Shown: positions 8,383-64,000 of the stretch, piece after piece
Layout of the letters: every line of letters starts with the position of its first letter
Numbering within the stretch: position 1 is the first letter of the stretch
Assembly: GCA_035297365.1 (NCBI GenBank)
Contig: DATGZA010000011.1
Location: 32,001-96,000 of the forward strand
DNA from: Nitrososphaeraceae archaeon
GTDB lineage: Archaea > Thermoproteota > Nitrososphaeria > Nitrososphaerales > Nitrososphaeraceae
Direction of reading: 5' to 3'
DNA: 64,000 nt
Notes under the pieces: generated by a model
What the model was told of the DNA's origin: nothing
The model's database searches: none
The model's input: only the letters and a program-made list of their open reading frames with translations
Made by a program: the position numbers and the translations under genes

Positions 8383-8440
8383 GAACCCTACTAATACACG
8401 TGGCTCGTAGAATAGTCAAGTGTTTTTGACACACAATTTG
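8383..8440 (+). repeat. Dispersed bipartite element, copy S1
   Basis: gaaccctactaatacacgtggctcgtagaatagtcaagtgtttttgacacacaatttg. Confidence 0.85.
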
Positions 8441-8674
8441 AATTTCAAAATAAGAAATTTGTAGTTGATAATCCTGGTTAAAATAAAACTATTGATCTAA
8501 ATGTTGCCATGACTGTAAATGGTTAGCTAAATGTGTTAGTAATGTGAGTTACACAACATGACAATATAATCAATAGATCCAGAATTTGAAATTCCGAATT
8601 CTTTTCTCTACTAATTTTATAGAAACTTTGATTAGAAAGTATTTTAAAAAGATTCTTTAATAAATAATTTAGGG

Positions 8675-9046
8675 ATGTTCCTAGATAACAAAAATACTTT
8701 TTATTTAGTAGTCATATTGTCTGCTTCATTTTTAATCGGTGGGATGATAACAGCACCGGTAGTTTCTAAAATATATGCTGATCCTGATACCAAATTCTTC
8801 AAAAAAGAAAATATAAAGATACAATATGATAAGAAACACAAAGACAAACACCACAAGTATAACGACAGATGTTATGACAACCATCATTATAAATACAAGC
8901 ACAAATACCACAAGTATAACGACAGATGTTATGACAACCATCATCATAAATATTACAAAGATCATAAACATCATGACAACCATCATCATAAATATTACAA
9001 AGATCATAAGAATTACAAACACGATAGAGAGTATCATAAATACTAA
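8675..9046 (+). CDS. Secreted His/Lys/Tyr/Asp-rich low-complexity protein
   Basis: Signal peptide then repeated HKYNDRCYDNHH and DNHHHKYYKDHK units. Confidence 0.75.
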   Translation: MFLDNKNTFYLVVILSASFLIGGMITAPVVSKIYADPDTKFFKKENIKIQYDKKHKDKHHKYNDRCYDNHHYKYKHKYHKYNDRCYDNHHHKYYKDHKHHDNHHHKYYKDHKNYKHDREYHKY

Positions 9047-9189
9047 TTTTATTAGAATAATAGGATCTGTAAATTAAAGAACAAATAAAGAAGCAACATA
9101 TAATTACTATCAGAGTTTCGATTGAAAAAAATAATGGACTTATCTTACCAATGGGTAAATTTAAAGTGTTAAAATTAGCAGAAGATAAA

Positions 9190-9290
9190 TAGCCCAAAAT
9201 CATCCTCCTATAAACAATTATGCTATTGGCTAATTGTACTATACCAAGATAGTTCTCTTTTTTCTTTTCGTACCTTGCAAATAACATTAT
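9190..9290 (-). mobile_element. IS5-family transposase C-terminal remnant
   Basis: Translates to FARYEKKKENYLGIVQLANSIIVYRRMILG, resembling the RYEK...Y.G...LA end of IS5-family transposases. Confidence 0.55.
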
Positions 9291-9765
9291 TTGCTAACAC
9301 CTATTCTTCTTGTCTATATCGTATGGAATTCATGAATTATGTCATTTGAAAATTCAAGGACATTCCTATCATTTTTAGAGTTTTTTTAAACAATTTGTAC
9401 TTGAATATCGGAAAAAAATTACTGGCTTCATAGAATTACGAGAGCTTGATATCATTAAACGACCCTGATTTTTACAATTCTATTTTTTTATACCCAATAC
9501 GATTTGATAACCTTTTAAAATCATTTTGATAATGCTTGTTTCAAATACCTATAAATTTTTCAAAAAGGTTATGAACTATTTATAGGGATATGGTTTTTTA
9601 TCTTAATATTTGCAGAATATTTAGTAATTACCTAAAGAATCAACTTATCTTCGCGATCATTTAACAAATCAAGTATGGTATTGGAAAATTTATCGAGGGT
9701 TCTTTGTTAGTGGCGGCACAAATATTGAAAAATAAGATCGATATGCTATAATACTACTTTTTTTA

Positions 9766-10335
9766 TTGGAAAATGTGGGCTATGATAATGAAGAATATGA
9801 AAAGAAAATGCTTATAGATTTCCTAAAATTAACTAAAGAGAGATTTCATATTTTAATAGATAGTGAAAATGGAGACCTCAGAACCATAATTTCTGATGAT
9901 ATGAGACCTCTTCTTCCTTTGTATGAAAGAACATATAAAGATGTTGAGAAGAATATCGACAGGTGTATGGAGATAATACCAAATATACCATACGGCCTTT
10001 TAGTTCGACATGGATTTACCAATAATCATCTTATTCTTAAATTAATTCAGGTAGATATATGTTGGATAAATATAGTAACTATAAGAAAAGATCCTTTAAA
10101 AAAATTTGATAAAATATACAAGGATCAAAAGGAACCATCTAAGGAAGAAAAAGGTAAATGGGAGTATTTTAAAGATAAACTAAGAAGAAATTGGTATAAA
10201 TTTCTAAGAGCAACTGATAGTTGTATTTTTGAAAGCTTAAATGATATTATTAATACAATGCCGGGCCAGTATGGAATTTTCAGTATGGTTAAAGAATGGA
10301 AAAATTCCGTAGAAATAGCAATTGAAGAAAAATAA
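9766..10335 (+). CDS. Hypothetical protein
   Basis: 189-aa ORF, no recognised motif; start uncertain. Confidence 0.7.
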   Translation: MENVGYDNEEYEKKMLIDFLKLTKERFHILIDSENGDLRTIISDDMRPLLPLYERTYKDVEKNIDRCMEIIPNIPYGLLVRHGFTNNHLILKLIQVDICWINIVTIRKDPLKKFDKIYKDQKEPSKEEKGKWEYFKDKLRRNWYKFLRATDSCIFESLNDIINTMPGQYGIFSMVKEWKNSVEIAIEEK

Positions 10336-10627
10336 ATCTATGGTACTTAGTATATCAAATTTCATTAAAGTTGAGAAAATTTGTACCTTGATCTTGAAAA
10401 ATTTGTCCCAACTTGAAAATAGAATATCGCAATTAAACTACTAAAATTGATAAATTTACTCTCAAGCTAAACGTACTTGAATTCATTTGAAAATAAGAAA
10501 ATAAAAAAACTAAATCAAGTTTGATTCTCTCTCACACACCACCCTCTGTTGATTCTTTTCTGATGTTTGATATAATTTGAATTGTTGTGTTTTCTATAAA
10601 ATACTTTCCAAATCATATGATGCAGCA

Positions 10628-10685
10628 GAGCCTTGATACTATACGGGCTAGGAGGATAGTCAACTGATTTTGACACAATTTTGTA
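10628..10685 (+). repeat. Dispersed bipartite element, copy S2
   Basis: gagccttgatactatacgggctaggaggatagtcaactgattttgacacaattttgta. Confidence 0.92.
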
Positions 10686-11181
10686 GAGCAAAAATTCAAT
10701 GACCAAACCGGAAGAATTCTGATTTTAATAGAGAACTAATTGTTAGCAATATTTTAAAACAGATATAGATTAATGTAATTGTTTAAATTGTGGTTTTCCT
10801 AACATAAGCCGATTTTTTATTTTAGTATTTTTATCACGATATATTTGTGACTTGCGTTTTCAATTTGTTAAAATATTCTTTTTAAAATGTCTTTTATTCC
10901 TATTATATAAAAGATCTCAATCCAATAATTATATGCATCTACAATTGTCATATTTAATACTTGAGTCGATTGATACATTGATTTTTGCTATTTGAAATAT
11001 GATTCTATTTCTAGTTTTTATCAACGTAATCGCCTTCATTCACATCTCTTTTCTTACTCTCTTGTATATTTGTATGAAAATTTTTAAATTAATCAACGTA
11101 TTGTTTTTTCTTTCTGTTTTGTTTGTTTAAATTATATCCTATCTATCTTTCTGTAGTATCATGGATGTGAATATGCTAGGC

Positions 11182-12618
11182 TCATTTTGAATCGTTATTG
11201 TCAAATCTTTTCTTCCGCCAGTGATCATCTATAGCGTCTCTTTCTTCTATTGCTAACTTTACATAATCTCTAAGATTGTTTTCTGTAACTTCATACGAAA
11301 AATCGCCAACCTGTTTTTGTATTTCCTTCTGTTGTTTTTGTATAATCTTTGTTACCTTCCTCTCTATCTCTTGTTCCATCTGTGCAGTTCCGATGTTACC
11401 AACCAGATCATTCATAGATCCTTTGATTGATTTTCTTAAAGAGATGTCATGTGATATTGATATTGCAGAGAGGTATAATCCAAAACTAAACAAGTACGAA
11501 GATAGCATTACAAGTGAATGAGCAGCAACTCCGTATGTCGGTTGTATTGCCGACGTAGAAAGTGAAATACCAACCATAGTATCACCTATTGCTGCGATGA
11601 TTAGATAATCTTTTAATTTTGATGAGACCAAACTCTTTACAATCATAAAAAAGGCTAGACCAAATAGAACATTTCCTGCTATAGTACCTATTCTAAATAA
11701 AAGTCTAAAAAAATAACGATACTGTTCGTCTACTCCTGATAAACCTTCACCTGAAAAGAAGCCTGGCGCCTTTCCAATCAAGTAAAATATCAATGGAAGT
11801 GACAAAATTATCCAAAGTAATAGCGGGAGTTTACCTACTCTCTGATAAAGGGTACGTAATAGTGAGGTAGATGCAATCCATCTAAATCCAAATGCTATTG
11901 GAAGAACCGTGGAATTGAGAAGATTATAAAATATTAGACTTGAATTTGGCATTATATAAAGAAAAGTAGTATCTGAATTCACTATTTTGTATATTATTTC
12001 GCCATCATATTTCTCAGAGGCTTCATATAAGAAAGATGATTCTGTCGTTACTCCTGGTGGCGACTTTTCTTGTACTACCTGTATTAATAATAATTTAGTC
12101 CCGGCATCTTCTAATATCGATGAACCAAGTGTCAATGCTGCAATTCCATAAAATAAAATAACGAGATTTTTATAACTAGTTAATTTATACCATGAAATTA
12201 ATTTGAAGGATATGATGGCTAATATTATGGTTGATGCTATTGAACTAACTGCGAAAATTGAAGGAGATAGAAATCTATTACCAGTATTACTAATAAGCAT
12301 AAGCAGGAGTACCAGAAATAAGGAAAATTGAATTATAACCATACTCCAATGCATTAGATTAATAAAACGGGATTTGGTTCGGATATCCTTACTTATTTGT
12401 GTAGTGTATCCTAGAAGGATCCAAGATCCTATACCATATCCAATAACCACAGTCAAAATAAACATTAGGATTTCCATATCCTTGGTATAAGGCAAAATCT
12501 GCCTGGTCATCAATAAGTCAATAATCAAAATAAAAAATATAGCAACTCCTGTTATGACAGGTATTTTCCTGTTACGCATAATAGGTATTTGGAGAAAAAA
12601 GTATCTACCAAGACTCAT
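11182..12618 (-). CDS. Polytopic membrane protein, paralog 1 of a three-member family
   Basis: About 10 TM helices and cytoplasmic tail IGTAQMEQEIERKV; similar to 49374 and 59370. Confidence 0.85.
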   Translation of the reverse strand: MSLGRYFFLQIPIMRNRKIPVITGVAIFFILIIDLLMTRQILPYTKDMEILMFILTVVIGYGIGSWILLGYTTQISKDIRTKSRFINLMHWSMVIIQFSLFLVLLLMLISNTGNRFLSPSIFAVSSIASTIILAIISFKLISWYKLTSYKNLVILFYGIAALTLGSSILEDAGTKLLLIQVVQEKSPPGVTTESSFLYEASEKYDGEIIYKIVNSDTTFLYIMPNSSLIFYNLLNSTVLPIAFGFRWIASTSLLRTLYQRVGKLPLLLWIILSLPLIFYLIGKAPGFFSGEGLSGVDEQYRYFFRLLFRIGTIAGNVLFGLAFFMIVKSLVSSKLKDYLIIAAIGDTMVGISLSTSAIQPTYGVAAHSLVMLSSYLFSFGLYLSAISISHDISLRKSIKGSMNDLVGNIGTAQMEQEIERKVTKIIQKQQKEIQKQVGDFSYEVTENNLRDYVKLAIEERDAIDDHWRKKRFDNNDSK

Positions 12619-13193
12619 GATTTAGATGCCCCCTAGAATTATTTAAATTAATTAAACTTTGATAATAAGAAATCATATTATCAATTAATAAAAATAATAA
12701 AATTAAATTTTTGTAGAAGGAAGATGCTTTTATATATACTATAAAATAAGTTTAAAAAGTATCGCATTTTCGCAATTTTTGTATTGCTTCAATTAATTGA
12801 GGAAGCATATTGATCCTTTATAACATACAAAATTTGTTTGTATTATAATATTAAAAAAATTAGTTAAAAAATAAGATATTAATTAATAAGTTTTCAATTA
12901 TTGAATTTCTATTCTGTTAATATCAGAATTATAACTGTAAAATCTTTTCCTGCTATTATCTGCTTTTTTTATTAATTATGACAAAAAGACAGATTATCAC
13001 TCAATCTACCGACATAAATTCATATCGGCTTGATATTCCAGTTCAACTTTCATCGATCGTTTCACTTCTTTTCTTACAGTCGTGTTTGAATATTCTTTCA
13101 TAAATTATAGCTATCTTTTCATTTAATTTGGTATTTAATATTTTTTTTAATTTTATTGATTGCGTATATACAATTTTATAGATTGCATATATA

Positions 13194-14147
13194 CTAATAT
13201 CCTTTAATATGTAACCCTGAGTCGTATACAATATTCTTCATCTGAAAAATTTGATAACCATTTTCAAATAAATATTTCATTTCCTTTTCAAATAAATCAG
13301 GTTTGATACTATAATCATCTTCACTATAATCAATCATATGATAAACGAGGATTGGAATTGCCCTTATTACGTATTCGCTATTGTATCTTGTTTGACTATC
13401 TACTATTTCTTTAAATTTTTCATACATTTCCTCATCAGAATATCCACCAGATTTTTTATAGGCTTCATGACTCAATCCAGTTATTGTATACCTTTTGAAA
13501 TCTAATTGTGTTGTATTTTCATTATTTTTATGTGAAGCATGTTGACATTGATTTTCGTGTTTATCATCATATACAAAACCTTCATCGTCATCTTTACATG
13601 AAAAAAACATAAGTGGCTCAGTTGCGGTCCGAGCAAGATAGTAATTGTCAGCAATAATTTTTATTATATTTTTGTTTGTATCGCCATCATTATATGGGAA
13701 GGAGAAACTGGTTACATTAAATCCTTTTTCATGTAGACATCTTTTGGATTCAATAATTTCATATTTTATATCATTATCTGATAATTTCCCAAGTCGTTTA
13801 TGGTTCATTGAATGAGAACCAATTTCATGGCCTTCTTGGGCAAGCGACTGGATATCATCCCAATTCATTCTATCGTCTTTACCTACAAAATTACAAATGA
13901 TATAGAAGGTAGCCTTAAAATTGTAAATATCTAAAATTGGTTTTGCGTAAGTGAACTGACTTAACATTCCATCATCAAATGTTAAAATTGCTGCTTTTAT
14001 TGGTTCAGCCAAGGAATAAGAAATCAGAACAGGAGAAGAAGATAATAATATTATCATTAAAAAAAGGAATACTGTTAAACAATACATAGTAAGAATTTCA
14101 AAAATGTGCAAGATATTTAGGTATTGCTTTAAATTGATTTTGTACAA
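13194..14147 (-). CDS. Secreted polysaccharide deacetylase (CE4/NodB)
   Basis: LTFDDG, KATFYI, EIGSHSMNH, FSFPY motifs; true start probably the internal Met (MYCLTV). Confidence 0.88.
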   Translation of the reverse strand: MYKINLKQYLNILHIFEILTMYCLTVFLFLMIILLSSSPVLISYSLAEPIKAAILTFDDGMLSQFTYAKPILDIYNFKATFYIICNFVGKDDRMNWDDIQSLAQEGHEIGSHSMNHKRLGKLSDNDIKYEIIESKRCLHEKGFNVTSFSFPYNDGDTNKNIIKIIADNYYLARTATEPLMFFSCKDDDEGFVYDDKHENQCQHASHKNNENTTQLDFKRYTITGLSHEAYKKSGGYSDEEMYEKFKEIVDSQTRYNSEYVIRAIPILVYHMIDYSEDDYSIKPDLFEKEMKYLFENGYQIFQMKNIVYDSGLHIKGY

Positions 14148-14254
14148 TTACATGATTAAATGTTATGCTATTACTTTATGTAGATAAATTCATTTTCATA
14201 TTTGTTTTATCTTTGTAATTACTGATATATTTATTCTTATGTATTCAAACTCAT

Positions 14255-14285
14255 GATAGTCAACTGTTTTTGACACAATTTTCTA
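14255..14285 (+). repeat. Dispersed element, copy S3 (core only)
   Basis: gatagtcaactgtttttgacacaattttcta; upstream dyad missing. Confidence 0.88.
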
Positions 14286-14383
14286 ATCCATAACAACTAA
14301 ATGTAATAAGATCATATCTATGATACTTTTATTGTAATCTAATAGAAAAAATTTTATGTGAATGTTAAAATGTTTTTTTATAA

Positions 14384-14695
14384 ATGTCTCAGTCTCAAAT
14401 TTTTGATATAGATACATTTTTATCAAATTTTCCTAAATCTAGATATTTTATTGAGGTAATGAATACACCAACCATGGAAGTTGGGATAATAAACTTGAAG
14501 AAAAGTCAAAATGACACTCAAGAACCTCACGCTTCAGATGAAATTTATTACGTTATAAGTGGGAGCGGAACAATAGATATAGATGGAATCGAAAATGAAG
14601 TTAATCCTGGAAAAATAATTTATATTCCGAAAAAAATCCCTCACTCATTTCATGCCATTACTAAAGAATTAATTGTTTTATACGTACTAGCATGA
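14384..14695 (+). CDS. Cupin-domain protein
   Basis: PHASDEIYYVISGSG...PGKIIYIPKKIPHSF. Confidence 0.9.
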   Translation: MSQSQIFDIDTFLSNFPKSRYFIEVMNTPTMEVGIINLKKSQNDTQEPHASDEIYYVISGSGTIDIDGIENEVNPGKIIYIPKKIPHSFHAITKELIVLYVLA

Positions 14696-15079
14696 ATACA
14701 TAATTAGGTCTCAATAAATAATTAGATTAATAGGTGTCTAATTCTGCTACTAATGATATAGGTTGTACATAATCATTTGACACCGTTTAATGCAAAAAGT
14801 TAAATATGACTTCAAACCTGCAAAAAACTTTTGTGATTATTTCCGGTATCCCAATCAGATAAATAACAAATCCTTGATATTTACTAGTTTGAAAGAGCGT
14901 AAAGAAGAACCTTGGGAAATACTGCTTGGTTTAAACTCTTTATCTTTTTTAATTTTTTTATCCTAATTGTTGAAATCGGAATTAGATTTTTATATACTTC
15001 CTTTTTATTCTTCTATTTGTCAGTATTATAATCAAATTTACCAACTTTATTTATAAGTAGCAATACTTTTTATTTTATA

Positions 15080-15370
15080 ATGAAATGTATTATTTGCAAA
15101 CGTAATAGAGTAGAGATACCTGATAAATCCTCTAATTATTGTTGGCAACATCAACAAATTTACATTAGTATAAAAAATCTATATGTTAGTGTGTTCAAAG
15201 CATATGGTTCTATTTCTTGGCAAAATTTTTTACTTAAAGTTCTAGATAAAAAAATTGACAAACCTTGGAAAAATTCTTTAATTGACTACTATGGAAAATT
15301 ATCTCCAGGAATTTTAAACGTCGTTAATTCGGAATTGCAGTTGTCACAAAATGGCAAAAAATTAAAATGA
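15080..15370 (+). CDS. Small hypothetical protein with CxxC...CxxH putative Zn site
   Basis: MKCIIC...YCWQH. Confidence 0.65.
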   Translation: MKCIICKRNRVEIPDKSSNYCWQHQQIYISIKNLYVSVFKAYGSISWQNFLLKVLDKKIDKPWKNSLIDYYGKLSPGILNVVNSELQLSQNGKKLK

Positions 15371-15827
15371 TATTTTCAAAATTAATGTTATAATTAATAA
15401 ATCAACTATAAGTAATAATTAACTTTTGGTAATTGATAAATATTTCATTCTATTTTTTAAAATGACAATACTAATCAAGGTATTACAAAAGTATTCAGGA
15501 AAAATTTCAACTGAAGATAATTAATTGTTACCGTCAGATAGAAAGAGATAATTAACCGATTCGGTTATCACGTATGTAATACTTTTTATATGCTTGACTA
15601 TTTTGTTATTATTACAACTACTTAATCTTCTTTAGAAAGAAACATTTCATATGAAGTGTAACAATCGATATCTTGATGCTCTCTTGTTCCTTGTATATTT
15701 TTGCAATGATGTCAGAGCTCTATTATTTAATATATAAACAAATTATTTTTGAATGCACTACAGTCTGATTTGGATTTATCATGGTCATCATATATTTTAG
15801 TAAAAAAACCAAGTAGTTGAAATAAAT

Positions 15828-16685: not shown

Positions 16686-16882
16686 GATTTTTTGATCCAA
16701 TTTGATGCTATTTGAATAAATAAAAGATCTACTGCATGGTGTGCCTTGGATAAATTTTTTTATAAATTTAAAATAAAAATGTAAGATATTATAAATTCCA
16801 TATTAGTTTTTACCATGAAGCATATTCAATCATCTGGATTTTTACATGATCACTAATTACGTAATAGATCTTGATTATAAAA

Positions 16883-17600
16883 AGCTGTGTTAAGTTAAGC
16901 AATAAAGTTATAGCTAAGAATATCATATCCATTATATGAAATAAAATTTGATAGAAATAGAACATGTGCCTGTATTGTAATATATTCTTTGTATCTGTAT
17001 TTTCTTGGTCTCCGTTTAAGAAATACGTCTAAAGTATTAATGCTCTTTAAAGGTAAGAAAAGGAGTTATGTGCCTGTATAGAATTGGGTTCAAAGATTTG
17101 GTTTCTGCAGGATCTATAAAAGAAAAATAATAATAGCATTCATGATGGATAAAGCCATTATTTAAATTGGCAACCAACATTTCCTGCAATGGGTCTATAT
17201 TGAACCAATTCACAGTTCTTTGCTTGGAATCTATATCTCAGAGGAGAGAAACATGATAGTTGATGAAAAATTCATTAGATCCTTGGTTGACAAATACGGA
17301 AAACATGTTGTGTTTACAGATGGAGGTACATGGGAGGATGAAGCATGTAACATAATTCGCTTAAAACAGTATCTGCAGTCACCATTTCGGAAAATTTTGA
17401 TGGAAAGAGTTAACCAATATTTTAAGGATAGAATCGAATCTTTTGATGACTATTATCGTATATACAAGAGGAATGTAATCTGTTACATTGACATAACTGG
17501 ATACATTTCTTTGTCGCTATGTATAATGATATAATATTTGAAAATTATTTTATAATTGAGATGCAAGAGAAAGGTGAATTTATCTTAAGTTAATAGAGCC
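16883..17600 (+). mobile_element. Degenerate IS6-family element
   Basis: Imperfect 17-bp terminal IRs (agctgtgttaagttaag / cttaagttaatagagcc); interrupted DDE transposase including IYISEERNM...KYGKHVVFTDGGTW...MERVNQYFKDRIESFDDYY (17220-17534). Confidence 0.8.
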
Positions 17601-18302: not shown

Positions 18303-18727
18303 ACACTAAATATTGTTTTGAGTGATATTAAGATTAATACTATTGACTATGTATTTTTCATTTATATTATATGTACAATTGTCTAAAACGTTGTAAAACA
18401 TAGGGCAAGATGATTATGAAAGTAATAGTTATCATTAAAGTCAAAGGAAAATCGATATTAATATTTTAGAATTTTATATCGTCTCTACAAATGATCAATA
18501 CAATTTAATAGTAAATAAAATGATTCCACGAGTTGAGCGTGGTAAGTGGAATTTAACATAAAAACTTTTATTTTTAAACTGATATACTACTTATATAATT
18601 ATTTTAGATACAACTTAGTTTTGAATAAAATACAATAAATATAATATTCTTTTTGAAGGAAGATTGGAAAAATCAACTGAATTTTTATAATTTCTATGTA
18701 ATATTCTAAAAATCAACAATTGTAACA

Positions 18728-18786
18728 AAGCCTCGATACCGTACGGACTGGAGAGAATAGTCAACTGATTTTGAAACAATTTTGTA
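18728..18786 (+). repeat. Dispersed bipartite element, copy S4
   Basis: aagcctcgataccgtacggactggagagaatagtcaactgattttgaaacaattttgta. Confidence 0.88.
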
Positions 18787-19182
18787 TTTCATGGAAAGTC
18801 GAGAATAATCTAAAGAACAGTCATTATCACATCTCATAAATGTCAACTGGGTATTTAATATTATACACTTTAGTATTACTGAAATATCAGGTTTGACAAA
18901 AAAACGCTAAGATAATGTCATTTAAAAAAATTTTTCAGAAGAGTAGAAAAAGTCGAGAAATTTTAGTTTCTGCTTTTACTGCTGTATCTGTTGGAATTAT
19001 TATCTCTCAACGTGTTTATAATCCTACTAAATCAACAGAAATTATGGCCATGTTAAGTTAAGGAAAATAGATGGATAGAAAGGAAAAAATCTTGTAAAAG
19101 TGAGGACTGTACAGCACAGAACATATAGAATTATGTAATATGACTATTACTTTACCCTTAAGTTTACAGGGCCAAAAATAAT

Positions 19183-21500: not shown

Positions 21501-21508
21501 GCATTAAA

Positions 21509-28059: not shown

Positions 28060-28506
28060 TAGAAAACAATCACCGTGAATAACCAAATTTAATATATTTT
28101 TTATTATGTGCTAGTTTGTTGGTTCTAAGATGTTTCAATTATTTTAATTTCTTAATTGTGTAGACCATTAAAAGATATACTTGTTTATCCATAAATAGTC
28201 ATTCCAAATAGTAATTCATTTTTCCTCGAGATCTTCTTGTTTTTTATCTTGTACTAAAAAAATATAATAATTTGTTCTTTCTGTTGTAAATTCATTAGAT
28301 TAGCGTCAATAAATTCCGAAAAACTTAAGAACCTTTAGAATATTACTTTGGTATCATTAAGTCCTACCTGTTCTCATATATTCATAAAATTCAATTAACA
28401 AACTTGAATTTGACTTGTTGTCTAGTTTTCTAACTTTTTCAAAAGTATCTTTGAGTTTTGTAGGGCATTTTGGACCTGTAATATTATCTTCCAATTGGTA
28501 GTATAC

Positions 28507-28564
28507 GAGCCCAATTGGTTGACGGGCTCTGAGAATAGTCAACTGTTTTTGACTCAATTTTGTA
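28507..28564 (+). repeat. Dispersed bipartite element, copy S5
   Basis: gagcccaattggttgacgggctctgagaatagtcaactgtttttgactcaattttgta. Confidence 0.92.
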
Positions 28565-28599
28565 TTTTGGAAACCAAAAAATTAGGAGATCGTCAAATA

Positions 28600-33857: not shown

Positions 33858-34089
33858 TAAATAATCTAAACTCTATCCAAGTTTTTTTTAAGAATGATTC
33901 AAAACAGAAAAGCTAAATATATTGAGTATAACATAAACATATGACAGAATCTGTCGTCTGTCGAACCGAGCGTGCAAATCCAGTCTAGACATCTTCCATT
34001 TTACGTGAGACATTATTAGTATACAAAAATTTCTTAACTCTGTAGTATCTTTCTAAGGATCATCATTTATACCAATAAAAAATGTTACT

Positions 34090-34147
34090 GAACCCTGTTA
34101 ATATAAGGGCTTAGAGGATAGTCAACTGTTTTTGACGCAATTTTGTA
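34090..34147 (+). repeat. Dispersed bipartite element, copy S6
   Basis: gaaccctgttaatataagggcttagaggatagtcaactgtttttgacgcaattttgta. Confidence 0.92.
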
Positions 34148-34452
34148 GCCAGAAAAAGAGATATTGTGAATTGATAATCAGATGTAAAAGCAATTAAATG
34201 TAATTGTTCCTCAATTTATGATATAATTTCTATCATTATTCTTATATTATTATTGACATCTTTACGTCCATAATCTGAAAATCCTCCTAAAATTGGACAT
34301 AATCCGAAAGTTCTTTTATGGATGTTTAAATTTATAACTTAGCACCATAATAATAGTCTTATATCTGTATATTTTTACATCTTTTTCTGTGTCTTTTTTT
34401 GAGTAGATAAATATAATTATTGAAGTTGGGAATAAATGGTGAATAAGAAGAA

Positions 34453-38869: not shown

Positions 38870-38954
38870 AAAAAATCACCGATTTCTCTTACTTTTTTTC
38901 TTATCCTTTGCATTTATATTCTATCCATTTTACTCTTGCAAAATAGATGTATGT

Positions 38955-39012
38955 GAACCCCTATATAACACGGGCTCGGAGAATAATCAACTGTTTTTGA
39001 CGCAATTTTGTA
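38955..39012 (+). repeat. Dispersed bipartite element, copy S7
   Basis: gaacccctatataacacgggctcggagaataatcaactgtttttgacgcaattttgta. Confidence 0.92.
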
Positions 39013-39177
39013 GTTCTGATCAGGAATTAATTACCTTACACTCTTATTATATTTTACATATATCTTATTTTATTTATAAAAATGAATTCAAATGAGACTA
39101 AAGTTTTCATTATTTTGATTTTTCAAATTTTTTTATAATATCTATCTGGTATAACAATCATATTATCAAAAGGGTAA

Positions 39178-51547: not shown

Positions 51548-51854
51548 TAACATTTTTATGAACAATCAAGAGCCTACATAGCCTAATGCTTTAAATGATA
51601 GAGTGAAAAAAGAAGAATTCAATAATCCTCTGATTCTATCAGTAAATTTGCTATATAAATTCTACAATGTTTAATATGATTTATTGAACTTTTTATAATA
51701 CATGTTCAATTTTATGCTTTAGACTTCCTTTCTCGTCAACTGATAGAGTTGGAAGCCGAGAGCGGAACTCGACACCTGAACATTGCTATAATTATTAAGT
51801 ATTTCTGAATTATTGTGTTTCTACGAAATACTTTGCAAATCATTTGATGTATCA

Positions 51855-51912
51855 GAGCCTTGATAGTCAACGGGGTCCGAGGATAGTCAACTGTTTTTGA
51901 CACAATTTAATA
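51855..51912 (+). repeat. Dispersed bipartite element, copy S8
   Basis: gagccttgatagtcaacggggtccgaggatagtcaactgtttttgacacaatttaata. Confidence 0.92.
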
Positions 51913-52349
51913 TTTCGAAAGAAATACTTTAAAGAATGACCGATTTTGATATAATTGATACCAATCTTATCTAAATAATAATACTAATGCCAGAAATGAC
52001 TAAAGCTAAAATCTGAAATTTTCTTTTAAAAGGAACTTTTAAATGAAAACTTGTAACAATCAACAAGAATGGAACCCGTAATATAGTTTCACTGTGATTT
52101 ATATTAAATAATAAGGTTAGTATTTTTTTTACTATGGTGACATATAAGATATGCAGCTAAGGAAGCCAAACCAGCTCTAACATCTTTTTACTCTGAAAGA
52201 AATGATAATTTAATTCAAAACTATAACTATAATAATAATAATAAATTGATTTATCTAATAGAATTTTTATTGAATAATAAACTTAAGTCTATTTAGTAGG
52301 AAAAACGTAATACTCTAGGATAATAAGAAAAATATACTCTTCTTTCTAT

Positions 52350-57359: not shown

Positions 57360-57554
57360 TTATAATTATAATAAAAGAAGGAAGATTTAGAATGAATATT
57401 TTTATTTATTTACTAGATTGAAAATATTTCATATTGTGCTTGTACATCAAATGCGATTCTTCTTATAGTCATTAATTGAGAATGATAAAATATTACAAGA
57501 TTCGATAATGTTTCTTCTAACCATAGATATATTAAATTCGTATTTAAAAATGCA

Positions 57555-58180
57555 ATGAGCAATCAAAAGATAGTTAATGCGTCTATACTGGGAGCAATAC
57601 TAGCGACAGGTCTACTGGCTCTAAACCCATCAATGCTTACAAACGCACAAGCACAGATGTACAATTATGATCATGGAAATGATACTATAAAGTATACTCC
57701 GATTCAAAATCACCTGATGTAAACGTTCAGAAAATAAAATGTGTAAATAGCAACATCAATGTCAATGGTATAGATATAACCGAAATACCTCCAGATGGTA
57801 CGACTGCAGCAGAAGCAGCAGAAAATGAAGGCGGAGCAGGAGCAAATAGCCAGAATGATAATGGTCTTGCAGACAAAATAAACTTCGACAAAAACCTAGT
57901 AAACGTATGTGCAAATATAAATGATAACGAACAGACAAAAATCAGTTCTCCAAAAGAAGCAAATTTGCTTGTGACCAAAACTGTCACCTGTGAGGACTTT
58001 TCTGATGAGTCGGTTCCTTCGGTTCAACAGGGGGTAAATCCTTGTCCAGTACTTGAAGCCACAATAACCGAAGATCAATTTGATATTTCGGTATCAGGTA
58101 ACAATCCAGTTCGACCTCAATTTCAAGGTTCAGAAGGAGGACATGAAACTCATAGGACACTTACTATCAAAATAATATAA
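57555..58180 (+). pseudogene. KIKCVNSN-family secreted protein, frameshifted
   Basis: MSNQKIVNASILGAILATGLLALNPS...; frameshift near 57690; VQKIKCVNSNINVNGIDIT...DKINFDKNLVNVCAN, then LLVTKTVTC... C-terminus. Confidence 0.8.
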
Positions 58181-58422
58181 CCGATCATTTTTTTATTTTT
58201 TGTTTATTAATCTATTACTCTAGTGATATTAATTTATTTTATTAATATAGCCATGGTTACCTTAGTGATGAAATTACCTTTCACTTAATTTTGGAATGAT
58301 GTTTTTCTACTGCTTCTCTGTTGTGTGGTTTCAACAAACAGTAGCATAGATTCAAATCTCTATTAAAGAAAATGTTAAGGTTGGTATACGCATGCTAAAT
58401 TCTAAGTTTAAAAAATGTTATT

Positions 58423-58449
58423 GAACCCTATTAATATACGGGCTCGGAG
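58423..58449 (+). repeat. Dispersed element, copy S9 (dyad half only)
   Basis: gaaccctattaatatacgggctcggag, preceded by aaaatgttatt as in S1; core absent. Confidence 0.8.
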
Positions 58450-58538
58450 CGCTTCGAGTTTGACATTTAGTTGGGATCTGTCTTTACAAATTTAAACTTT
58501 AACTTTTTAAAATCAATGTGACCATTTTAAAAAATCTT

Positions 58539-59369: not shown

Positions 59370-60734
59370 TTGCACGAATCGAAGAAAATTCAATATATTT
59401 TTAGTTCATCAGGTCTTATTATTGTAGTAGGATTTGTAATTGTTCTACTTCATATAGTTGACATGACCGCAGGCGACACTTGGGCTTTGAACATCAATGA
59501 CCGTAATTCGTTTCAATATATAATAATATATTTTATAATCACGGTGACATCACTAGTTATCCAAGCTTTCCTTCTTATGATCTCTATAAAGATAGCATTT
59601 ACAACCAAGAAAGCAACCTCGCATCTATCAATGATAACCAGATACCTTTATGTAGGATCACATATGGCAGTAATGGGTTCCATTGCATATTTATTGGCAG
59701 AACAAGTAGTAACATATAGATATCATACGGTATTACTCGAGTTAATAGTAGCACTAAGTTTTATACCATCAATTTTAATCTTCATTTCATTAGCATTCAG
59801 AAATCTAAAGTCATTTTCATCCACTAAAAGAAAAATCGTTATGGTATACGGTATAGCCATAATTGCGATTGCAGTACAATTGATCATTGCCTTTTGTTAT
59901 ATAGAGATCAATCTCTATAGTAAACCTGAGATCATAACTCCTGATAGGAATCCATGGGCATCCTATTTCTATACAAGTATCCAAAGTAAAATGTCCGTAA
60001 GTTATGAGATTAGTGAGGATATTTCCTTTATTATCATATGGATGGCTTCTATATTACTTACTAAACCATATGCACAAAAGATTGGGAAAATAAAATATTC
60101 GATAACATTGAGTGTTCCAATAATATACTTCCTATTTCAGTATTCTCCACTATTGTTGGAACAAATGGGAACATTAAGTTTTCTTGTTATGGCAGAAGGA
60201 TCATTATTTTTATATTTTTACAATTTTGTTTTAAATACAGTTAATATAGGAACGGGAATATTAATTGGAATCTCATTTTACATATTATCTAGATCTTTGG
60301 TCTATGATGATTTAAAATATTACCTGATAATATGTGGCACAGGAATCATGATTATCTTCAGTAGTGGTGTTTCAACAATCTTAACCTTAGCTCCTTTTCC
60401 AGCATGGGCTATTGTTTCCCTTTCATTTATCTTGCCAGCATCATTCCTATTTTTAATTGGGCTCGATTCAGCAACATATTATATTGCAAGTGACACTTTG
60501 ATACGTAGGTATCTGTATAGACATAGGGATCAATTTGGTCTATTCCAAGCTTTGGGTTATACAAAAGCTTCCGACATTGTTGAGCAAAAGGTACGTAAAC
60601 AACTCGATAATCTCAAAGATAAAACATTTTTTGAACCAGTATATGAATTAGAAGATACGAAACAGTATATCCAGAAGGTAATAACAGAAATGAAAGAATC
60701 TGATACAAAAATAGATAGTTCAAAATCGGATTAA
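59370..60734 (+). CDS. Polytopic membrane protein, paralog 3
   Basis: Many TM helices; PFPAWAI...DSATYYIASD...ALGYTKASDIVEQKV tail. Confidence 0.85.
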   Translation: MHESKKIQYIFSSSGLIIVVGFVIVLLHIVDMTAGDTWALNINDRNSFQYIIIYFIITVTSLVIQAFLLMISIKIAFTTKKATSHLSMITRYLYVGSHMAVMGSIAYLLAEQVVTYRYHTVLLELIVALSFIPSILIFISLAFRNLKSFSSTKRKIVMVYGIAIIAIAVQLIIAFCYIEINLYSKPEIITPDRNPWASYFYTSIQSKMSVSYEISEDISFIIIWMASILLTKPYAQKIGKIKYSITLSVPIIYFLFQYSPLLLEQMGTLSFLVMAEGSLFLYFYNFVLNTVNIGTGILIGISFYILSRSLVYDDLKYYLIICGTGIMIIFSSGVSTILTLAPFPAWAIVSLSFILPASFLFLIGLDSATYYIASDTLIRRYLYRHRDQFGLFQALGYTKASDIVEQKVRKQLDNLKDKTFFEPVYELEDTKQYIQKVITEMKESDTKIDSSKSD

Positions 60735-60864
60735 TTTTCGATTAAGTTAGGAATTAATTTATGTATATAAAAAGCAATAATCAATTGTATCTACTCTAAA
60801 AATAATAAGTTTTGATCGAGATATTAATTAGATATTAATAAACTTATTAATGAGGGTGCAAACA

Positions 60865-60898
60865 GAGGATAGTCAACCGTTTTTCACATAATTTTGTA
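60865..60898 (+). repeat. Dispersed element, copy S10 (core only, degenerate)
   Basis: gaggatagtcaaccgtttttcacataattttgta. Confidence 0.8.
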
Positions 60899-61042
60899 GT
60901 TTGATAATTTTTGTGATTACCTTATTCCTTCCTTATTTACAAAAGACTTTGATATTAATCAAAAGTTTTGTTATTCAATTCCTTAAACACATAAAATAAG
61001 AGTAAGATGAGGAGATGCTTCTGTAAAAAAATTTTAGGTAAA

Positions 61043-61781: not shown

Positions 61782-62900
61782 TTGTACAATATGAATTACA
61801 TTGGCACCATGCATGAGAATGAACTAAAAAATGGAGAACATAAAAAAGTAAAAGTTAAGGACAAAGAAATAATCATTTTTAAATTAAATGATAATATAAC
61901 TGCCATTAGTAATACATGCCTTCACAAAGGAGGACCTTTATCTGAAGGAAAAGTGGAAAAAAAATATGGTGGTTACTATATTACTTGTCCATGGCATGGA
62001 TGGGAATATAATCTTGTTACGGGAAAGGCACCTCCAGGATATGAAGAACAACAAGCAATGTACGATGTAATTGTAAAAGATAATAAAATACACGTTTCAG
62101 AGAAGCCTATTATATTACCTTTTAGGGGAACACATAAAGAAAATCCTTTACAAGACCTTATAGAGTTAAAATACGATACAAGTTCTACTTCTCTGAATAT
62201 ATTAGGAATTTCAACTACAAATATGAATGAGAAATTACCTAGGATTTCAACATCAGAATTAGTATTGCAAGAAGCACTCGATTATGCTAGGAGAGAGTAT
62301 CAAGCAAATACAGTAATGATAAGACTTTCAGATATTGAATTTAGGCATTGCGAAGGATATTATAGTAGAAATGAAATGGCGTGTACTTGGCCTTGCTCGA
62401 TATCCGAAATGGATAGTAATGATGGAATGAATGATATATATCGAAAAATGATTCTATGGGCTGACATAGTAGTAGTTAGCACCCCTATTCGATGGGGTAA
62501 TGCTTCATCACTTTATTACAAAATGATTGAAAGGCTTAATTGTGTTCAAAATCAAATAACATTACATAATCGCGTTTTAGTAAACAACAAAGTTGCAAGT
62601 TTTATAATCACAGGTGGCCAAGATAACATACAAAGTGTTGCTGGACAGATGATGATGTTTTTTAGTGAGTTAGGTTTTACATTACCCCCTTATTCATTTA
62701 TGGGATGGAGTAGAGGTTGGATAGCTGAAGATATGGAACATAATGTACAACAATTCAAGAAATCAAGGTATATCAAGAGATCTTTAAGAGATCTAGTTGA
62801 TAATGATATAAAATTATTAAGACAATTGAAAGGAGATCCTTGTATCCATATTAATTTCCCTCAACCAAAAATTACTGATACTTCTTCTTATAATAAATAA
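61782..62900 (+). CDS. Rieske [2Fe-2S] ferredoxin fused to flavodoxin-like NAD(P)H-dependent FMN reductase domain
   Basis: CLHKGGPL...CPWHGW; CEGYYS...CTWPC, STPIRWG. Confidence 0.88.
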   Translation: MYNMNYIGTMHENELKNGEHKKVKVKDKEIIIFKLNDNITAISNTCLHKGGPLSEGKVEKKYGGYYITCPWHGWEYNLVTGKAPPGYEEQQAMYDVIVKDNKIHVSEKPIILPFRGTHKENPLQDLIELKYDTSSTSLNILGISTTNMNEKLPRISTSELVLQEALDYARREYQANTVMIRLSDIEFRHCEGYYSRNEMACTWPCSISEMDSNDGMNDIYRKMILWADIVVVSTPIRWGNASSLYYKMIERLNCVQNQITLHNRVLVNNKVASFIITGGQDNIQSVAGQMMMFFSELGFTLPPYSFMGWSRGWIAEDMEHNVQQFKKSRYIKRSLRDLVDNDIKLLRQLKGDPCIHINFPQPKITDTSSYNK

Positions 62901-62920
62901 ACTTCTCAAAGGGATAGCAA

Positions 62921-63640
62921 ATGGATAGTGATGTTATTTCTTATAACAAAATTATACCTTTGAGAACTATTTGTAGGGTAATTGCTAAAATAAAGTCACA
63001 GCAAATAGAATCTTTACCCCACTTTGGTCATGAAGCATTATTTTTTCAGAATAATGCAGTAACAACCGGACTAATGAATAATACAAAAGAACTTAAGATA
63101 GATTTTTTTAGTGGCTTATTTTTATCTTACAAGAATGAAGATACTATACAAATCGATTTGACATCTAAAAATATTCAAGATATATATGACTTTTTTACTA
63201 ATAATTTTGATCTTTCTATATCCCAAGAAATCACGAATCTGGATAGTCAAGAATTACAAAATCATTATTATTTTATGTCAAAGGCTAACCTTAGCTTAGA
63301 AATATTTAGAATGAGGTTGGGTGGAAAGTTTACGCTTGTGCATTTGTGGCCACATGGATTCGATCTTTCTGTAGAATATTTTACTGGAATACAGAATCAG
63401 CAAATTGGAATTGGAATATCACCTGGAGAAGAAAATATTTCCTTACCTTATCTCTATATCAATCCTTATCCTTTCAATCAAGAAATCAAAGAGGAAAAAT
63501 TACCATTAGGGGAATGGTATGATAAATCATGGAAGGGAATAAAAGTCGAGTGGAATGAGATATCTTCTAAAAATGAAAAAGAAATTGCATCTTTCATCTC
63601 CCAATTGTTTAAAATATCATACAAAAATTTTATTAAATGA
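62921..63640 (+). CDS. Hypothetical protein
   Basis: 239-aa ORF 20 bp downstream of the Rieske gene; LWPHGFDL, GISPG, PYLYINPYP. Confidence 0.8.
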   Translation: MDSDVISYNKIIPLRTICRVIAKIKSQQIESLPHFGHEALFFQNNAVTTGLMNNTKELKIDFFSGLFLSYKNEDTIQIDLTSKNIQDIYDFFTNNFDLSISQEITNLDSQELQNHYYFMSKANLSLEIFRMRLGGKFTLVHLWPHGFDLSVEYFTGIQNQQIGIGISPGEENISLPYLYINPYPFNQEIKEEKLPLGEWYDKSWKGIKVEWNEISSKNEKEIASFISQLFKISYKNFIK

Positions 63641-63651
63641 TATTGTAAAAC

Positions 63652-63920
63652 TCCTTTGTTAAATTAAGCAGTAAAAATTATAGGCAAAAATATCCCGTCT
63701 ACTATATGAAAATTAAACTTAGAAATATAACATCTAGCTTTATTGTAATGTATTTTTCATATTTGTACTTGTTCTAAGTTTTAGAAAATATAGTTAAAAT
63801 ACTGCAACCTTTTAAAGATCAAAAAAGAAGTTATGTTGCTGAATGGTATTGGATTCACCGATTTGGTTCATTGCAGATCTATAACAAGCATAGAAGTATT
63901 TCCGTATTCATAGTAGGTAA
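63652..63920 (+). mobile_element. IS6-family 5' remnant
   Basis: Homologous to 16885-17150 (ttgttaaattaagca; gttatgt...ttgg.ttca..gatttggtt...gatctataa). Confidence 0.6.
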
Positions 63921-63973
63921 ACATTTCTAAATTATTGTCTTTATAAAATACTTTGCAGAAAGTTGATGTAAAA

Positions 63974-64000
63974 GAGCCTTGATACTATATGGACTCGGAG
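63974..64000 (+). repeat. Dispersed element, copy S11 (cut by window edge)
   Basis: gagccttgatactatatggactcggag with the same upstream extension as S2 and S8. Confidence 0.85.

Follow-up and report, generated by a model that had tools for sequence, protein, structure and literature searches.

The array of repeated elements in the window (the 64,000-nucleotide stretch of DNA that was analysed) is best read as part of a large accessory-gene island of a soil ammonia-oxidising archaeon, built by successive insertions of small elements at an arginine tRNA gene. The repeats themselves are probably attP-like joints of serially integrated, mostly integrase-less elements that target tRNA-Arg. An earlier note on this DNA had taken them for recombination sites or scars left by modules that integrated again and again at one locus, a view supported by the clustering, the co-orientation and the synteny breaks described below. 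Its further identification of the sites as Xer/dif (pdif) sites was not borne out: the sites are anchored on the tRNA-Arg(UCG) 3' end, and a dedicated family of tRNA-adjacent tyrosine integrases supplies the recombinase.

The window contains nine ~75-base elements with a core, one that has just the hairpin half (58409-58449) and one that runs off the window end. Eleven copies had been counted earlier; of these, the one at 58423 has a hairpin and GGGCTCGGAG followed by a GCTTCGAG arm with no core, and the one at 63974 is truncated. Each copy lies on the + strand in a gap between ORFs (judged against ORFs of at least 80 aa), whatever the orientation of the neighbouring genes, and neighbouring copies are 2.2-12.9 kb apart, as first described. 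The repetition is real: a 28-nt core pattern with up to three mismatches matched eight times in the window, always on the + strand, and never in 100 shuffles; the nhmmer search agreed, and a repeat search grouped ten copies. A twelfth candidate at 42854 (70% identity in the repeat search) was dropped, having no nhmmer match at E<=1 and no match to a sequence-only covariance model at E<=0.01. The features are as follows, with nhmmer positions given as contig coordinates minus 32000.

8370..8450, + strand: copy 1, type-B hairpin, degenerate tRNA-derived segment CGTGGCTCGTAG and decaying core (nhmmer E 7.9e-13)
10614..10693, + strand: copy 2, type-A hairpin, ACGGGCTAGGAGG and core (core pattern, nhmmer; orthologous copy in the relative G017)
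14227..14294, + strand: copy 3, core only, TTCAAACTCATG before the core, no GARCC hairpin (core pattern, nhmmer)
18715..18791, + strand: copy 4, type-A-like hairpin and core (core pattern, nhmmer)
18757-28535: 9.8-kb unit with copy 4 at its 5' end and an integrase remnant and type-C hairpin at the other
28165..28467 (C11 ~60165-60464), - strand: integrase pseudogene fragment, N-terminal ~100 residues (tblastn)
28494..28573, + strand: copy 5, type-C hairpin GAGCCCAATTGGTTGAC, then ACGGGCTCTGAG and core (core pattern, nhmmer)
34076..34154, + strand: copy 6, type-B hairpin, AAGGGCTTAGAGG and core (core pattern, nhmmer)
38940..39019, + strand: copy 7, type-B hairpin, ACGGGCTCGGAG and core (core pattern, nhmmer; a G017 block end coincides)
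51841..51920, + strand: copy 8, type-A hairpin, ACGGGGTCCGAGG and core (core pattern, nhmmer)
58409..58480 (nhmmer 58409-58449), + strand: second-kind joint, type-B hairpin, GGGCTCGGAG, then P2 arm (sequence, nhmmer)
60832..60904, + strand: copy 10, type-D upstream module TTAATAAAC...GCAAACAGAGG and decaying core (core pattern, nhmmer)
63961..64000, + strand: copy 11, type-A hairpin and ATGGACTCGGAG, the core lying just past the window end on the contig (repeat search, nhmmer)

The element is composite and runs from a variable hairpin module through the 13-mer ACGGGCTCGGAGG (O below) into a near-invariant arm of ~31 nt, GT[C/G]AAC-TGWTTT-TGACACAATTTTGTAGTTCA. The GARCC...GGRCT hairpin of the consensus drawn up earlier is missing from the core-bearing copies at 14255 and 60865. 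Within the core is an inverted repeat, GTCAA-N6-TTGAC, which in some copies reaches TGTGTCAA-N6-TTGACACA. The palindrome arms are 5-8 bp long with a variable left arm, not the conserved 11-bp arms of the earlier note. Among 182 unique copies, a set partly chosen by the same motif, conservation of the right arm and tail is 85-100%. The P2 arm of the second-kind joint reads GCTTCGAG..TGACA..TAGTTGGGATC and has 7 further bases in common with the tRNA, with no core.

Comparison with the tRNA genes showed that O, when reverse-complemented, corresponds to the final 12 nt of tRNA-Arg(UCG) and one base of its flank. In G017, ARAGORN placed tRNA-Arg(tcg) at C10:1147352-1147426; GGGCTCGGAGG of the element is the 3' end of this gene, reverse-complemented, and the type-C hairpin module is the reverse complement of its downstream flank. 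The tRNA lies on the right side in the element orientation. For example, the metagenome contig L079 carries a core, a 750-bp unit, a hairpin, O and an intact tRNA-Arg in that order, and the unit joined straight to the tRNA has no integrase. The tRNA-derived 12-mer is recognisable (up to two mismatches) in just 100 of 226 elements, and the type-D modules have CGGAGG alone in common. A tRNA-Arg(TCG) gene was not found in this assembly (G000), and the head of its own array is thus outside view.

A tyrosine integrase directly follows tRNA-Arg(UCG) in three relatives. The G017 ORF of 436 aa begins 58 nt past the tRNA and matches the PHROG_1 integrase (E 4.5e-14). PF00589 matches four of the five family members; the G017 integrase scores 26.3 bits, under the 27.1 cut-off. 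The residues R180, R298, H299, W320 and Y330 are invariant in the five-member alignment. Among ten integrase loci inspected, three have the tRNA-then-integrase layout and two have core-O-P'-integrase, one of these with an intact integrase. Intact integrases adjoin elements or the tRNA in G016, G017, G003 and G010. No recombinase had been recognised in the window, and indeed there is no intact one; however, an integrase pseudogene fragment lies at 28165-28467(-) beside the copy at 28507. It aligns with residues 2-104 (43% identity, E 1.9e-12), carries stop codons and a frameshift, and has ~55 nt between its start and the tRNA-derived segment in copy 5, which is the tRNA-to-integrase layout of G017. 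Integrase fragments that adjoin the hairpin side and are oriented as predicted are found at C11 60165-60464 and 137573-137706, and also in G014:C32, G019:C385/C332/C261 and G016:C100. This assembly has no intact member of the tRNA-Arg-associated family.

On these findings, each element is probably an attP-like joint, made up of a P arm, O and a P' arm, at which two adjacent units of a tandem array meet. The variable hairpin module would be the P' end of the left-hand unit, O would come from the tRNA-Arg(UCG) 3' end, and the near-invariant arm would be the P end of the right-hand unit. The dedicated integrase, coded just downstream of the tRNA in relatives, would put circular units into the tRNA 3' end, with strand exchange perhaps in or beside O, or otherwise in the 6-bp spacer to which the earlier note pointed; the conserved arm may bind the integrase or an accessory factor. 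Every fresh insertion would displace older units away from the tRNA, giving an array in which all units share one orientation, with old, syntenic ones far from the tRNA and young, shuffled ones close to it. The majority of units are 1-10 kb long, with ordinary metabolic or stress cargo and no integrase, which they would need in trans.

A whole-genome profile scan for clustering and strand bias placed 20 of 27 nhmmer matches in the 2.52-Mb assembly on contig C11 (40370-143389), all 20 on the + strand; the sequence-only covariance model placed 18 of 22 there, again all +. In G017, 16 of 21 model matches fall within C10:1.08-1.36 Mb. The array extends over ~100 kb in this assembly and ~215 kb in G017. 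A set of 80 independent metagenome contigs includes 40 with at least two matches, and in 39 of these every match is on one strand. The copy number ranges from 0 to 36 across one genus, with 20-36 or more joints in element-bearing genomes. The congeneric G012 (98% complete) has no elements by pattern or model and no integrases of the tRNA-Arg-associated family; ~80%-identical homologues of several cargo genes lie there beside a degenerate tRNA-Arg copy, with no element. The main array of G017 lies 88 kb away from the tRNA, in inverted orientation with respect to that gene. The G017 elements are on the minus strand at <=1.170 Mb, plus at 1.176-1.359 Mb and minus again at 1361888, and because of this second flip the main array is probably an inverted segment of a single island.

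Gene blocks have been gained, lost and reordered between species, with block ends at elements, as the earlier note had expected of synteny breaks. Of the 36 block ends, five are no more than 10 bp away from an element (random mean 0.63, P 0.00035) and 14 no more than 300 bp (random mean 4.6, P 0.00015); the other 22 are more than 300 bp from every element. At the site of copy 3, G017 has an extra 3.26-kb block between two cores, versus one core here. One unit is found behind three to four different upstream modules in different genomes, and many units are 0.9-2 kb long with a single gene. C11 is collinear with G017 at 40-85 kb and reordered at 93-144 kb. G017 and G000:C6 share a 1.3-kb unit at 99.2% identity in different contexts, whereas syntenic blocks are ~92% identical. 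The window order is kept in contigs of three other soil or aquatic metagenomes; one contig covers 9411-16711 and crosses two elements, and the sole well-supported joint in the metagenome contigs (25032->27442) is not at an element.

Such serial insertion resembles tandem accretion at tRNA genes (composite islands, archaeal arrays). There too, tRNA 3'-end direct repeats bound the units, a tyrosine integrase adjoins the tRNA, integrases decay in older units, and integrase-less units could be mobilised in trans. The array here differs in scale and grain (20-36+ joints and many 0.9-2-kb single-gene units), in its near-invariant arm beside just 12-13 nt of tRNA identity, and in the inverted, tRNA-distant main array of G017. 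Archaeal 'gene capture', reportedly described by She et al. 2001, is said to trap integrated elements that decay and leave att repeats and integrase fragments by tRNA genes; in that case the SSV-type integrase gene was reportedly itself split by integration. The att repeats and integrase fragments beside the tRNA are alike; whereas the att site here is outside the integrase gene, and the units are far more numerous. Krupovic et al. 2019 (PMC6563490) describe arrays formed by tyrosine-recombinase elements of archaea and bacteria through same-site reuse.

That the island is an active integron-like cassette platform can be proposed only tentatively, though the units may still be mobile. The attC consensus has a whole-site palindrome (R''/L''...L'/R') and GTTRRRY; the element here lacks both and is not attC. 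The main ORFs of small units also have no common orientation (17 on +, 22 on -), the insertion site is a tRNA gene, and the integrase is of a tRNA-targeting type. Chromosomal integrons and CALINs, archaeal examples from Ghaly et al. 2022 (PMC9668308) among them, are nevertheless similar in several respects: many small units in one long array of uniform orientation with a composite, partly hairpin-forming site between them, most arrays without an adjacent integrase, an insertion point that adjoins the integrase gene, and a unit order that varies between relatives.

The elements might instead be inert, being either fossilised att scars or intergenic sequence that has been duplicated, with site-specific activity now absent, while RadA-type recombination at ~30-45-nt identical stretches moves the blocks. 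Homologous recombination between repeats could indeed be behind much of the shuffling: the switch from shared to unshared sequence has no one fixed position that would define a crossover, falling just after O, between the palindrome arms or past the tail. The decay visible in several copies (8412, 60869 and G017 1266656), the lack of an intact family integrase in G000 and the stable order in three other metagenome populations fit this explanation as well. It is nonetheless unlikely, given the conserved right arm and tail (in the partly motif-selected set), the 99.2%-identical unit in two species, the intact integrases by elements or tRNA in four genomes, and the integrase-less unit joined directly to the tRNA.

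An island growing at XerA substrates, like IMEX at dif or pdif modules, is very unlikely. The inverted repeat does have the 6-bp spacer that is typical of tyrosine-recombinase cores, and in the pairs at C11 96016, 101909 and 137791 the upstream block brings along the left arm and spacer, and the downstream block the right arm. However, pdif sites alternate in orientation, whereas the sites here are all direct repeats; there are at least 22 copies per genome, and the left arm is unconserved. The copy-free G012 also disfavours a chromosomal dif, since such a site could not be so absent. The element moreover contains the tRNA-Arg 3' end, and its associated recombinase is a dedicated tRNA-adjacent integrase. 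The assembly has four PF00589 matches, all off the array contig; of the three translated, one is a 467-aa integrase that overlaps a tRNA-Thr gene, and the other two were not judged XerA. The geometry of dif is 11-6-11 (PMC8371274), which the putative XerA palindrome would follow; at dif and pdif, recombinase-less elements likewise gather at a short site with a 6-bp spacer between inverted arms.

The T-runs, the small palindrome and a TATA-like TTTCTATAAAATA ~38 nt upstream of some type-A copies might point to a gene for a small RNA, to a terminator or insulator, or to an operator bound by a dimeric regulator. This is scarcely credible: no Rfam family reached the gathering score for the element, RNAalifold gave only an invariant 5-bp stem without compensatory change, the orientation is independent of flanking genes, the main ORFs of small units lie on both strands, and the copies are restricted to one region. 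Polar sites for replication or segregation, for instance a Ter-like fork trap between two Orc1/Cdc6 genes, are highly improbable: G017 does have opposite-orientation groups and an array between Cdc6-like genes at 0.80 and 1.71 Mb, but GC skew shows no inflection, the copy number varies widely within one genus, the flip back to minus suits an inverted segment, and the polarity is explained by the tRNA and integrase links.

The repeat that the earlier note described in the window is real, and far above chance: with 3 mismatches allowed, a 28-nt core pattern gave 8 matches, all on the + strand, against 0 in 100 shuffles. A repeat search of the window grouped 10 copies, and an nhmmer profile built from the copies located the elements listed here.

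Elements in the window located with the nhmmer profile
8370-8450, + strand, element
10614-10693, + strand, element
14227-14294, + strand, element without the GARCC...GGRCT hairpin (copy at 14255)
18715-18791, + strand, element
28494-28573, + strand, element
34076-34154, + strand, element
38940-39019, + strand, element
51841-51920, + strand, element
58409-58449, + strand, hairpin and GGGCTCGGAG only, then a different arm (copy at 58423)
60832-60904, + strand, element without the GARCC...GGRCT hairpin (copy at 60865)
63961 onward, + strand, element cut by the window end (copy at 63974)

The sites announced earlier were all recovered, but not as 11 uniform copies, given the different arm at 58423, the missing hairpins at 14255 and 60865, and the truncation at 63974. 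All copies lie between ORFs of at least 80 aa, in agreement with their earlier placement outside genes. A 12th candidate at 42854 was rejected.

The assembly of this archaeon (G000) comprises 2.52 Mb in 110 contigs with 30.5% G+C. The genome scan bore out the proposed clustering and strand bias: 20 of the 27 nhmmer matches (E ≤ 1) are on contig C11 (40370-143389; subtracting 32000 gives the window position), all 20 on the + strand. The remaining matches are on C6 (2, on the minus strand at the contig start), C60, C26, C42, C27 and C78. A sequence-only covariance model gave 22 matches in the assembly, including 18 on C11, those all on the + strand. Within the genus, the 25-nt core (up to 3 mismatches) was present in 16 of the 24 other genomes; in other genera it was present in none of the 36 genomes scanned. 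Covariance-model copies numbered 36 in G005, 26 in G019, 19 in G014, 2 in G018 and 0 in G012; in the well-assembled congeneric relative G017, 16 of 21 model matches lie within C10:1.08-1.36 Mb. Eighty metagenome contigs were obtained by an exact 26-nt pattern; 40 of them carry at least two matches, and in 39 of these 40 all matches are on a single strand. The median element spacing was 1675 bp on the metagenome contigs, where short spacings are favoured by short contigs, and 3.9 kb in the genome-derived set (73 intervals, 0.87-59 kb). No exact match of the core pattern was found among viral contigs.

The anatomy of the element was derived from 92 copies of six genomes (182 unique copies overall), and three parts were recognized. 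Part (i) is a variable upstream module, which is either a hairpin of the form GARCC-loop-GGGCTC (types A, B and C) or TAATAAAC...GCNCTCAAAC (type D). Part (ii) is ACGGGCTCGGAGG, whose CGGAGG portion is present in 66-83% of copies; its 12-mer was found, with up to 2 mismatches, in 100 of 226 elements. Part (iii) is a ~31-nt arm, GT[C/G]AAC-TGWTTT-TGACACAATTTTGTAGTTCA, the right half and tail of which are 85-100% conserved, a value raised in part by the choice of the metagenome copies with the same motif. The palindrome GTCAA-N6-TTGAC, which reaches TGTGTCAA-N6-TTGACACA in some copies, has a 6-bp spacer and inverted arms of 5-8 bp, versus 11 bp in dif. Very little variation is seen in the right arm; the left arm varies in its outer half, with ATAG, TGTG or TGTA ahead of T[C/G]AAC. 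Linkage of the left arm to the upstream versus the downstream block gave identities of 0.74 and 0.79 (baseline 0.59), from pairs that are few and non-independent. No Rfam match was found in the window at gathering score, and RNAalifold gave an invariant 5-bp stem only, with no covariation. A C/D-box or H/ACA sRNA was rejected, since the box-like motifs are not conserved among copies.

Read on the opposite strand, part (ii) gives the final 12 nt of tRNA-Arg(tcg) and 1 flanking base, and CGGGCTCGGAGG in the element corresponds in the same way to the 12 nt that end the G017 tRNA-Arg(tcg). The joints with alternative arms in place of the core (P2/P3 types) have 18-20 nt in common with tRNA-Arg. 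Moreover, hairpin-only partial copies continue into GCTTCGA..., and one of them in G017 runs directly into tRNA-Arg(tcg) at C10:1147352-1147426 (ARAGORN), whose downstream flank (GTCAACCAATTGGGCTCATATAC...) is a type-C hairpin module. The metagenome contig L079 shows an array head, in which a core, a 750-bp unit, a type-B hairpin and GGGCTCGGAGG are followed by an intact tRNA-Arg. These two layouts place the tRNA at the right-hand end in element orientation, and the array head shows that a unit without integrase can sit directly on tRNA-Arg. The unit-bounding repeat is identical to the tRNA 3' end, as in tRNA-targeting integrative elements. G012 has neither the elements nor the tRNA-Arg-linked integrase, but behind a degenerate tRNA-Arg copy it carries ~80% homologues of several of the cargo genes, with their order shuffled. 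The G012 locus could be an old, decayed island; equally, some of the 'cargo' could be ancestral.

The preferred reading is serial integration at tRNA-Arg(UCG). The hairpin of each element would be the P' end of the left unit, O the tRNA-derived segment, and the invariant arm (core) the P end of the right unit, with new units inserted at the tRNA end. Such insertion would explain the co-orientation, the old syntenic distal part (the window side) and the shuffled proximal part. In G017 the joints read, in tRNA orientation: tRNA-O-P'C with integrase, P3-O-P'B at 1152044, core-O-P'B at 1153319, and P2-O-B' at 1157955, where the B' flank resembles the tRNA flank in the genomes G016 and G022. This short arm has tRNA-Arg (1147352-1147426) at one end and the P2-O-B' joint at the other. 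The series has the classical pattern of elements integrated in tandem at a single attB, where the internal joints are of attP type (P-O-P'), and the window elements are probably such P-O-P' joints. The P2/P3-type joints on the + strand span 1217386-1358999, and minus-strand joints flank them at positions up to 1169965 and at 1361888; the main array is inverted relative to tRNA-Arg, 88 kb away. These joint orientations suggest a single island of ~215 kb with an inverted middle. The strand-switch region of G017 (L002, 7-19 kb) held ordinary enzymes only and no conserved central recombinase, and the strand-switch region of G005:C176 is not homologous to it. GC skew was uninformative in the G017 region and on C11. 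Overall, the system appears to carry the defining features of tRNA-targeted tandem accretion; neither tRNA-Arg(TCG) nor the head of its own array was found in the 110 contigs.

A tyrosine integrase adjoins the att site or the tRNA, as in tRNA-targeting elements. In G017 a 436-aa ORF begins 58 nt past tRNA-Arg and matches PHROG_1 'integrase' (E 4.5e-14); PF00589 scored 26.3 bits on it (cut-off 27.1) and matches 4 of 5 members of the family. In the family alignment every member has R180, R298-H299, W320 and Y330. The G017 protein shares 23% identity over 349 residues (E 1.5e-14) with the tRNA-Thr-linked integrase of G000, the region of which gave 54.9 bits with PF00589. The tRNA-Arg integrases are proteins of 430-470 aa with a C-terminal zinc ribbon. 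The AlphaFold model was too poor for comparison (mean pLDDT 52.5), and a PDB sequence search gave no match at E ≤ 0.01. Among 10 integrase loci, three have tRNA-Arg followed by the integrase (L044, L045 and L039), and two have core-O-P'-integrase, with the gene intact in L032 (G016:C100) and broken in L049. Four are members of a sister subfamily, whose tRNA-like segment is a different one, and one shows neither layout nor the sister type. The sister integrases (L047, L048, L050 and L051) are 56-73% identical; upstream of the integrase start lie CTCCCGACGGGCCCG, which is their tRNA-like segment, and a P' arm of similar kind that can form a hairpin, which suggests parallel systems at another tRNA gene.

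The integrase family was detected in 22 of 25 genomes of the genus (E ≤ 1e-10), many matches being fragments, and was not found in G012, G009 and G011 at the same threshold. The G000 assembly contains it as fragments only.

Integrase fragments in the G000 assembly
C11 60165-60464 (window 28165-28464), - strand, fragment with 43% identity over residues 2-104, stops and a frameshift
C11 137573-137706, - strand, fragment
C11 149754-149900, - strand, fragment
C63, C23, C9 and C78, further pieces

The fragments at C11 60165-60464 and 137573-137706 lie directly on the hairpin side of type-C elements, in the same orientation as at the tRNA. The earlier statement that the window has no recombinase holds for an intact gene, but a pseudogene is present at 28165-28467 (-). 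The window unit 18757-28535 carries GT2, Zn-ADH, alpha/beta hydrolase and epimerase genes with the integrase remnant at its end; it looks like a decayed 9.8-kb integrative element, because the remnant is on the hairpin side in tRNA-like orientation. Outside the window, a ~290-bp G+C-rich stretch (C11:149901-150190; genome 30% G+C) follows right after the start of the integrase N-terminal fragment, and could be foreign DNA or an assembly chimera.

The units differ between genomes. G017 and G000 are collinear over C11 40265-85179 at ~92-95% identity. An extra 3.26-kb block in G017 lies exactly between two cores; one core is at the G000 site, and the alignments on either side of the block overlap at C11 46255-46283. 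Other blocks start or end in an element at C11 71014, 101899, 99533 and 137765. The expected synteny breaks at elements were thus observed, for part of the 36 ends of 18 high-identity blocks in the array: 5 were no more than 10 bp from an element (0.63 on average for uniform random positions, P 0.00035) and 14 no more than 300 bp (4.6 on average at random, P 0.00015), with 22 further off. The uniform null is a lenient one, since breaks and elements alike fall between genes. Beyond C11 93 kb, the gene order is reshuffled relative to G017. Single units stand behind 3-4 different upstream modules across genomes (C11 101909, 96016, 137791 and 97667). Moreover, a 1.3-kb unit (G000:C6:194-1509 and G017:C10:1152037-1153351) is 99.2% identical between different neighbours, versus ~92% for syntenic DNA, which suggests that it was transferred recently. 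This unit lies between two joints and has an ORF for a membrane protein of 185 aa and a Cys-rich ORF of 62 aa. Three copies of a PNPOx-like gene of 144 aa (recognized by eye in the translation) are present, at C11:123312-123746, C11:137841-138323 and C42:3012-3446; the C11 copies begin 60-70 nt past a core, the C42 copy adjoins a degenerate core, and they look like duplicated units.

Assembled contigs of four public runs were also compared. Contigs of three other metagenome populations keep the window order, and the only robust joint, from 25032 to 27442, falls away from the elements; 3 nt at this joint match either side. The skipped stretch 25033-27441 (2.4 kb, with the NAD-epimerase gene 26058-27359) is absent from contigs of three metagenomes of different studies, so that it was either inserted in this lineage or deleted from the others. 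Loose ends or 'joints' at 10652, 10686, 28522 and 28564 were rejected as rearrangements; they carry the sequence of other copies, for example the flank of copy 38955, and were read as paralogous cores aligning.

The point of exchange varies. In the 3.26-kb G017 insertion the core travels with the downstream block, which fits exchange at O. In other unit pairs a shared downstream block is preceded by a differing left arm and spacer, which agrees with the earlier note's proposal of exchange in the spacer; in one duplicate pair the switch point is beyond the tail. Given these varied switch points, homologous recombination among the repeats is a possible route as well.

Serial integration at tRNA-Arg(UCG) was also weighed against known systems. 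The proposal of an integron-like island survives as a resemblance to cassette arrays, but the attC architecture and the ORF orientation of integrons were not found. An attC site is a 57-141-bp imperfect palindrome with R'', L'', L' and R' boxes (R' = GTTRRRY); in the 92-copy listing and the profile, the site as a whole is not palindromic and its 3' end lacks GTTRRRY. The integron integrase, IntI, has a specific additional domain and is encoded beside attI; the integrase here has a C-terminal zinc ribbon. Integron cassettes are mostly single promoterless ORFs in one orientation; here 17 ORFs are on + and 22 on - in 39 units (400-2500 bp with a dominant ORF), and the window units have 1-10 genes on both strands. 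By analogy, the array may nevertheless work like a cassette array. Identity with Xer/dif was not sustained, since that system has one site per chromosome wherever the Xer recombinase occurs; whereas this array is many-copy (22 model copies in G000, 21 in G017) and absent from G012, which is 98% complete. CRISPR was correctly set aside, as its identical repeats alternate with regular ~25-50 bp spacers and the spacings here are 0.5-59 kb and contain genes. We further suggest, tentatively and as somewhat more doubtful than probable, a working archaeal integron analogue built from different parts. In it, tRNA-Arg(UCG) would take the attI role beside a dedicated adjacent tyrosine integrase, and dozens of mostly single-gene, integrase-less units with a ~75-bp site (hairpin, tRNA segment and invariant arm) would be excised, reinserted at the array head and exchanged between species, forming a reshufflable accessory reservoir of 100-200 kb in the genus. 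Arrays of integrated archaeal elements are described in general in PMC6563490. No prior description for this genus or of this array was found within the literature searched.

The window cargo includes polysaccharide deacetylase, cupin, PPK2, GT2, Zn-ADH, hydrolase, epimerase, DJ-1/PfpI, NDH2, nitroreductase, ChrB_C, EEP nuclease/phosphatase, luciferase-like oxidoreductase, DUF1264, a cupredoxin protein, phosphoesterase and Rieske/FMN reductase, which is ordinary accessory metabolism. Soil ammonia-oxidising Nitrososphaerales are abundant, and to our knowledge little is known about how they gain genes. The locus offers a concrete route, in which small cargo units are captured one after another at a single tRNA gene; the island of redox, hydrolase, glycosyltransferase, and metal- or stress-related genes covers at least 100 kb here (~4% of the assembly) and ~215 kb in the relative. 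The organism was found in 12 studies, and because the joints are easily detected, unit turnover could be traced in many soil metagenomes containing it. If the units are still mobile, they would represent a cassette platform evolved independently of bacterial integrons, and would provide the bench with a compact pair of integrase and att site of mesophilic archaeal origin.

Several minor features were noted in and around the array. The ORF 17748-18302 (-, 185 aa) has weak YtxH-like matches only; it is one member of a ~650-bp family that has at least a dozen copies spread over many contigs, and is the sole high-depth part of 9000-28999 in the metatranscriptome run X19 (contig depth ~700 versus ≤8). 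The elements themselves had no cover in X19, from which nothing follows about them. Paralogous proteins of ~140-190 aa without Pfam match are encoded at window 7611-8150, 35270-35781 and 57444-57934, with further copies at C11 116901-117331 and 136046-136629 and on other contigs; several of these copies adjoin elements with type-B hairpins. Inside the array, C11:139236-139541 (-) encodes a C-terminal piece of an IS110-type transposase, which was recognized by eye in the translation. Tandem coding repeats occur at window 3349-3990 (147- and 141-bp units in ORF 3196-4167) and at 8874-9009 (42-57-bp His/Asn/Tyr-rich units in ORF 8675-9046).
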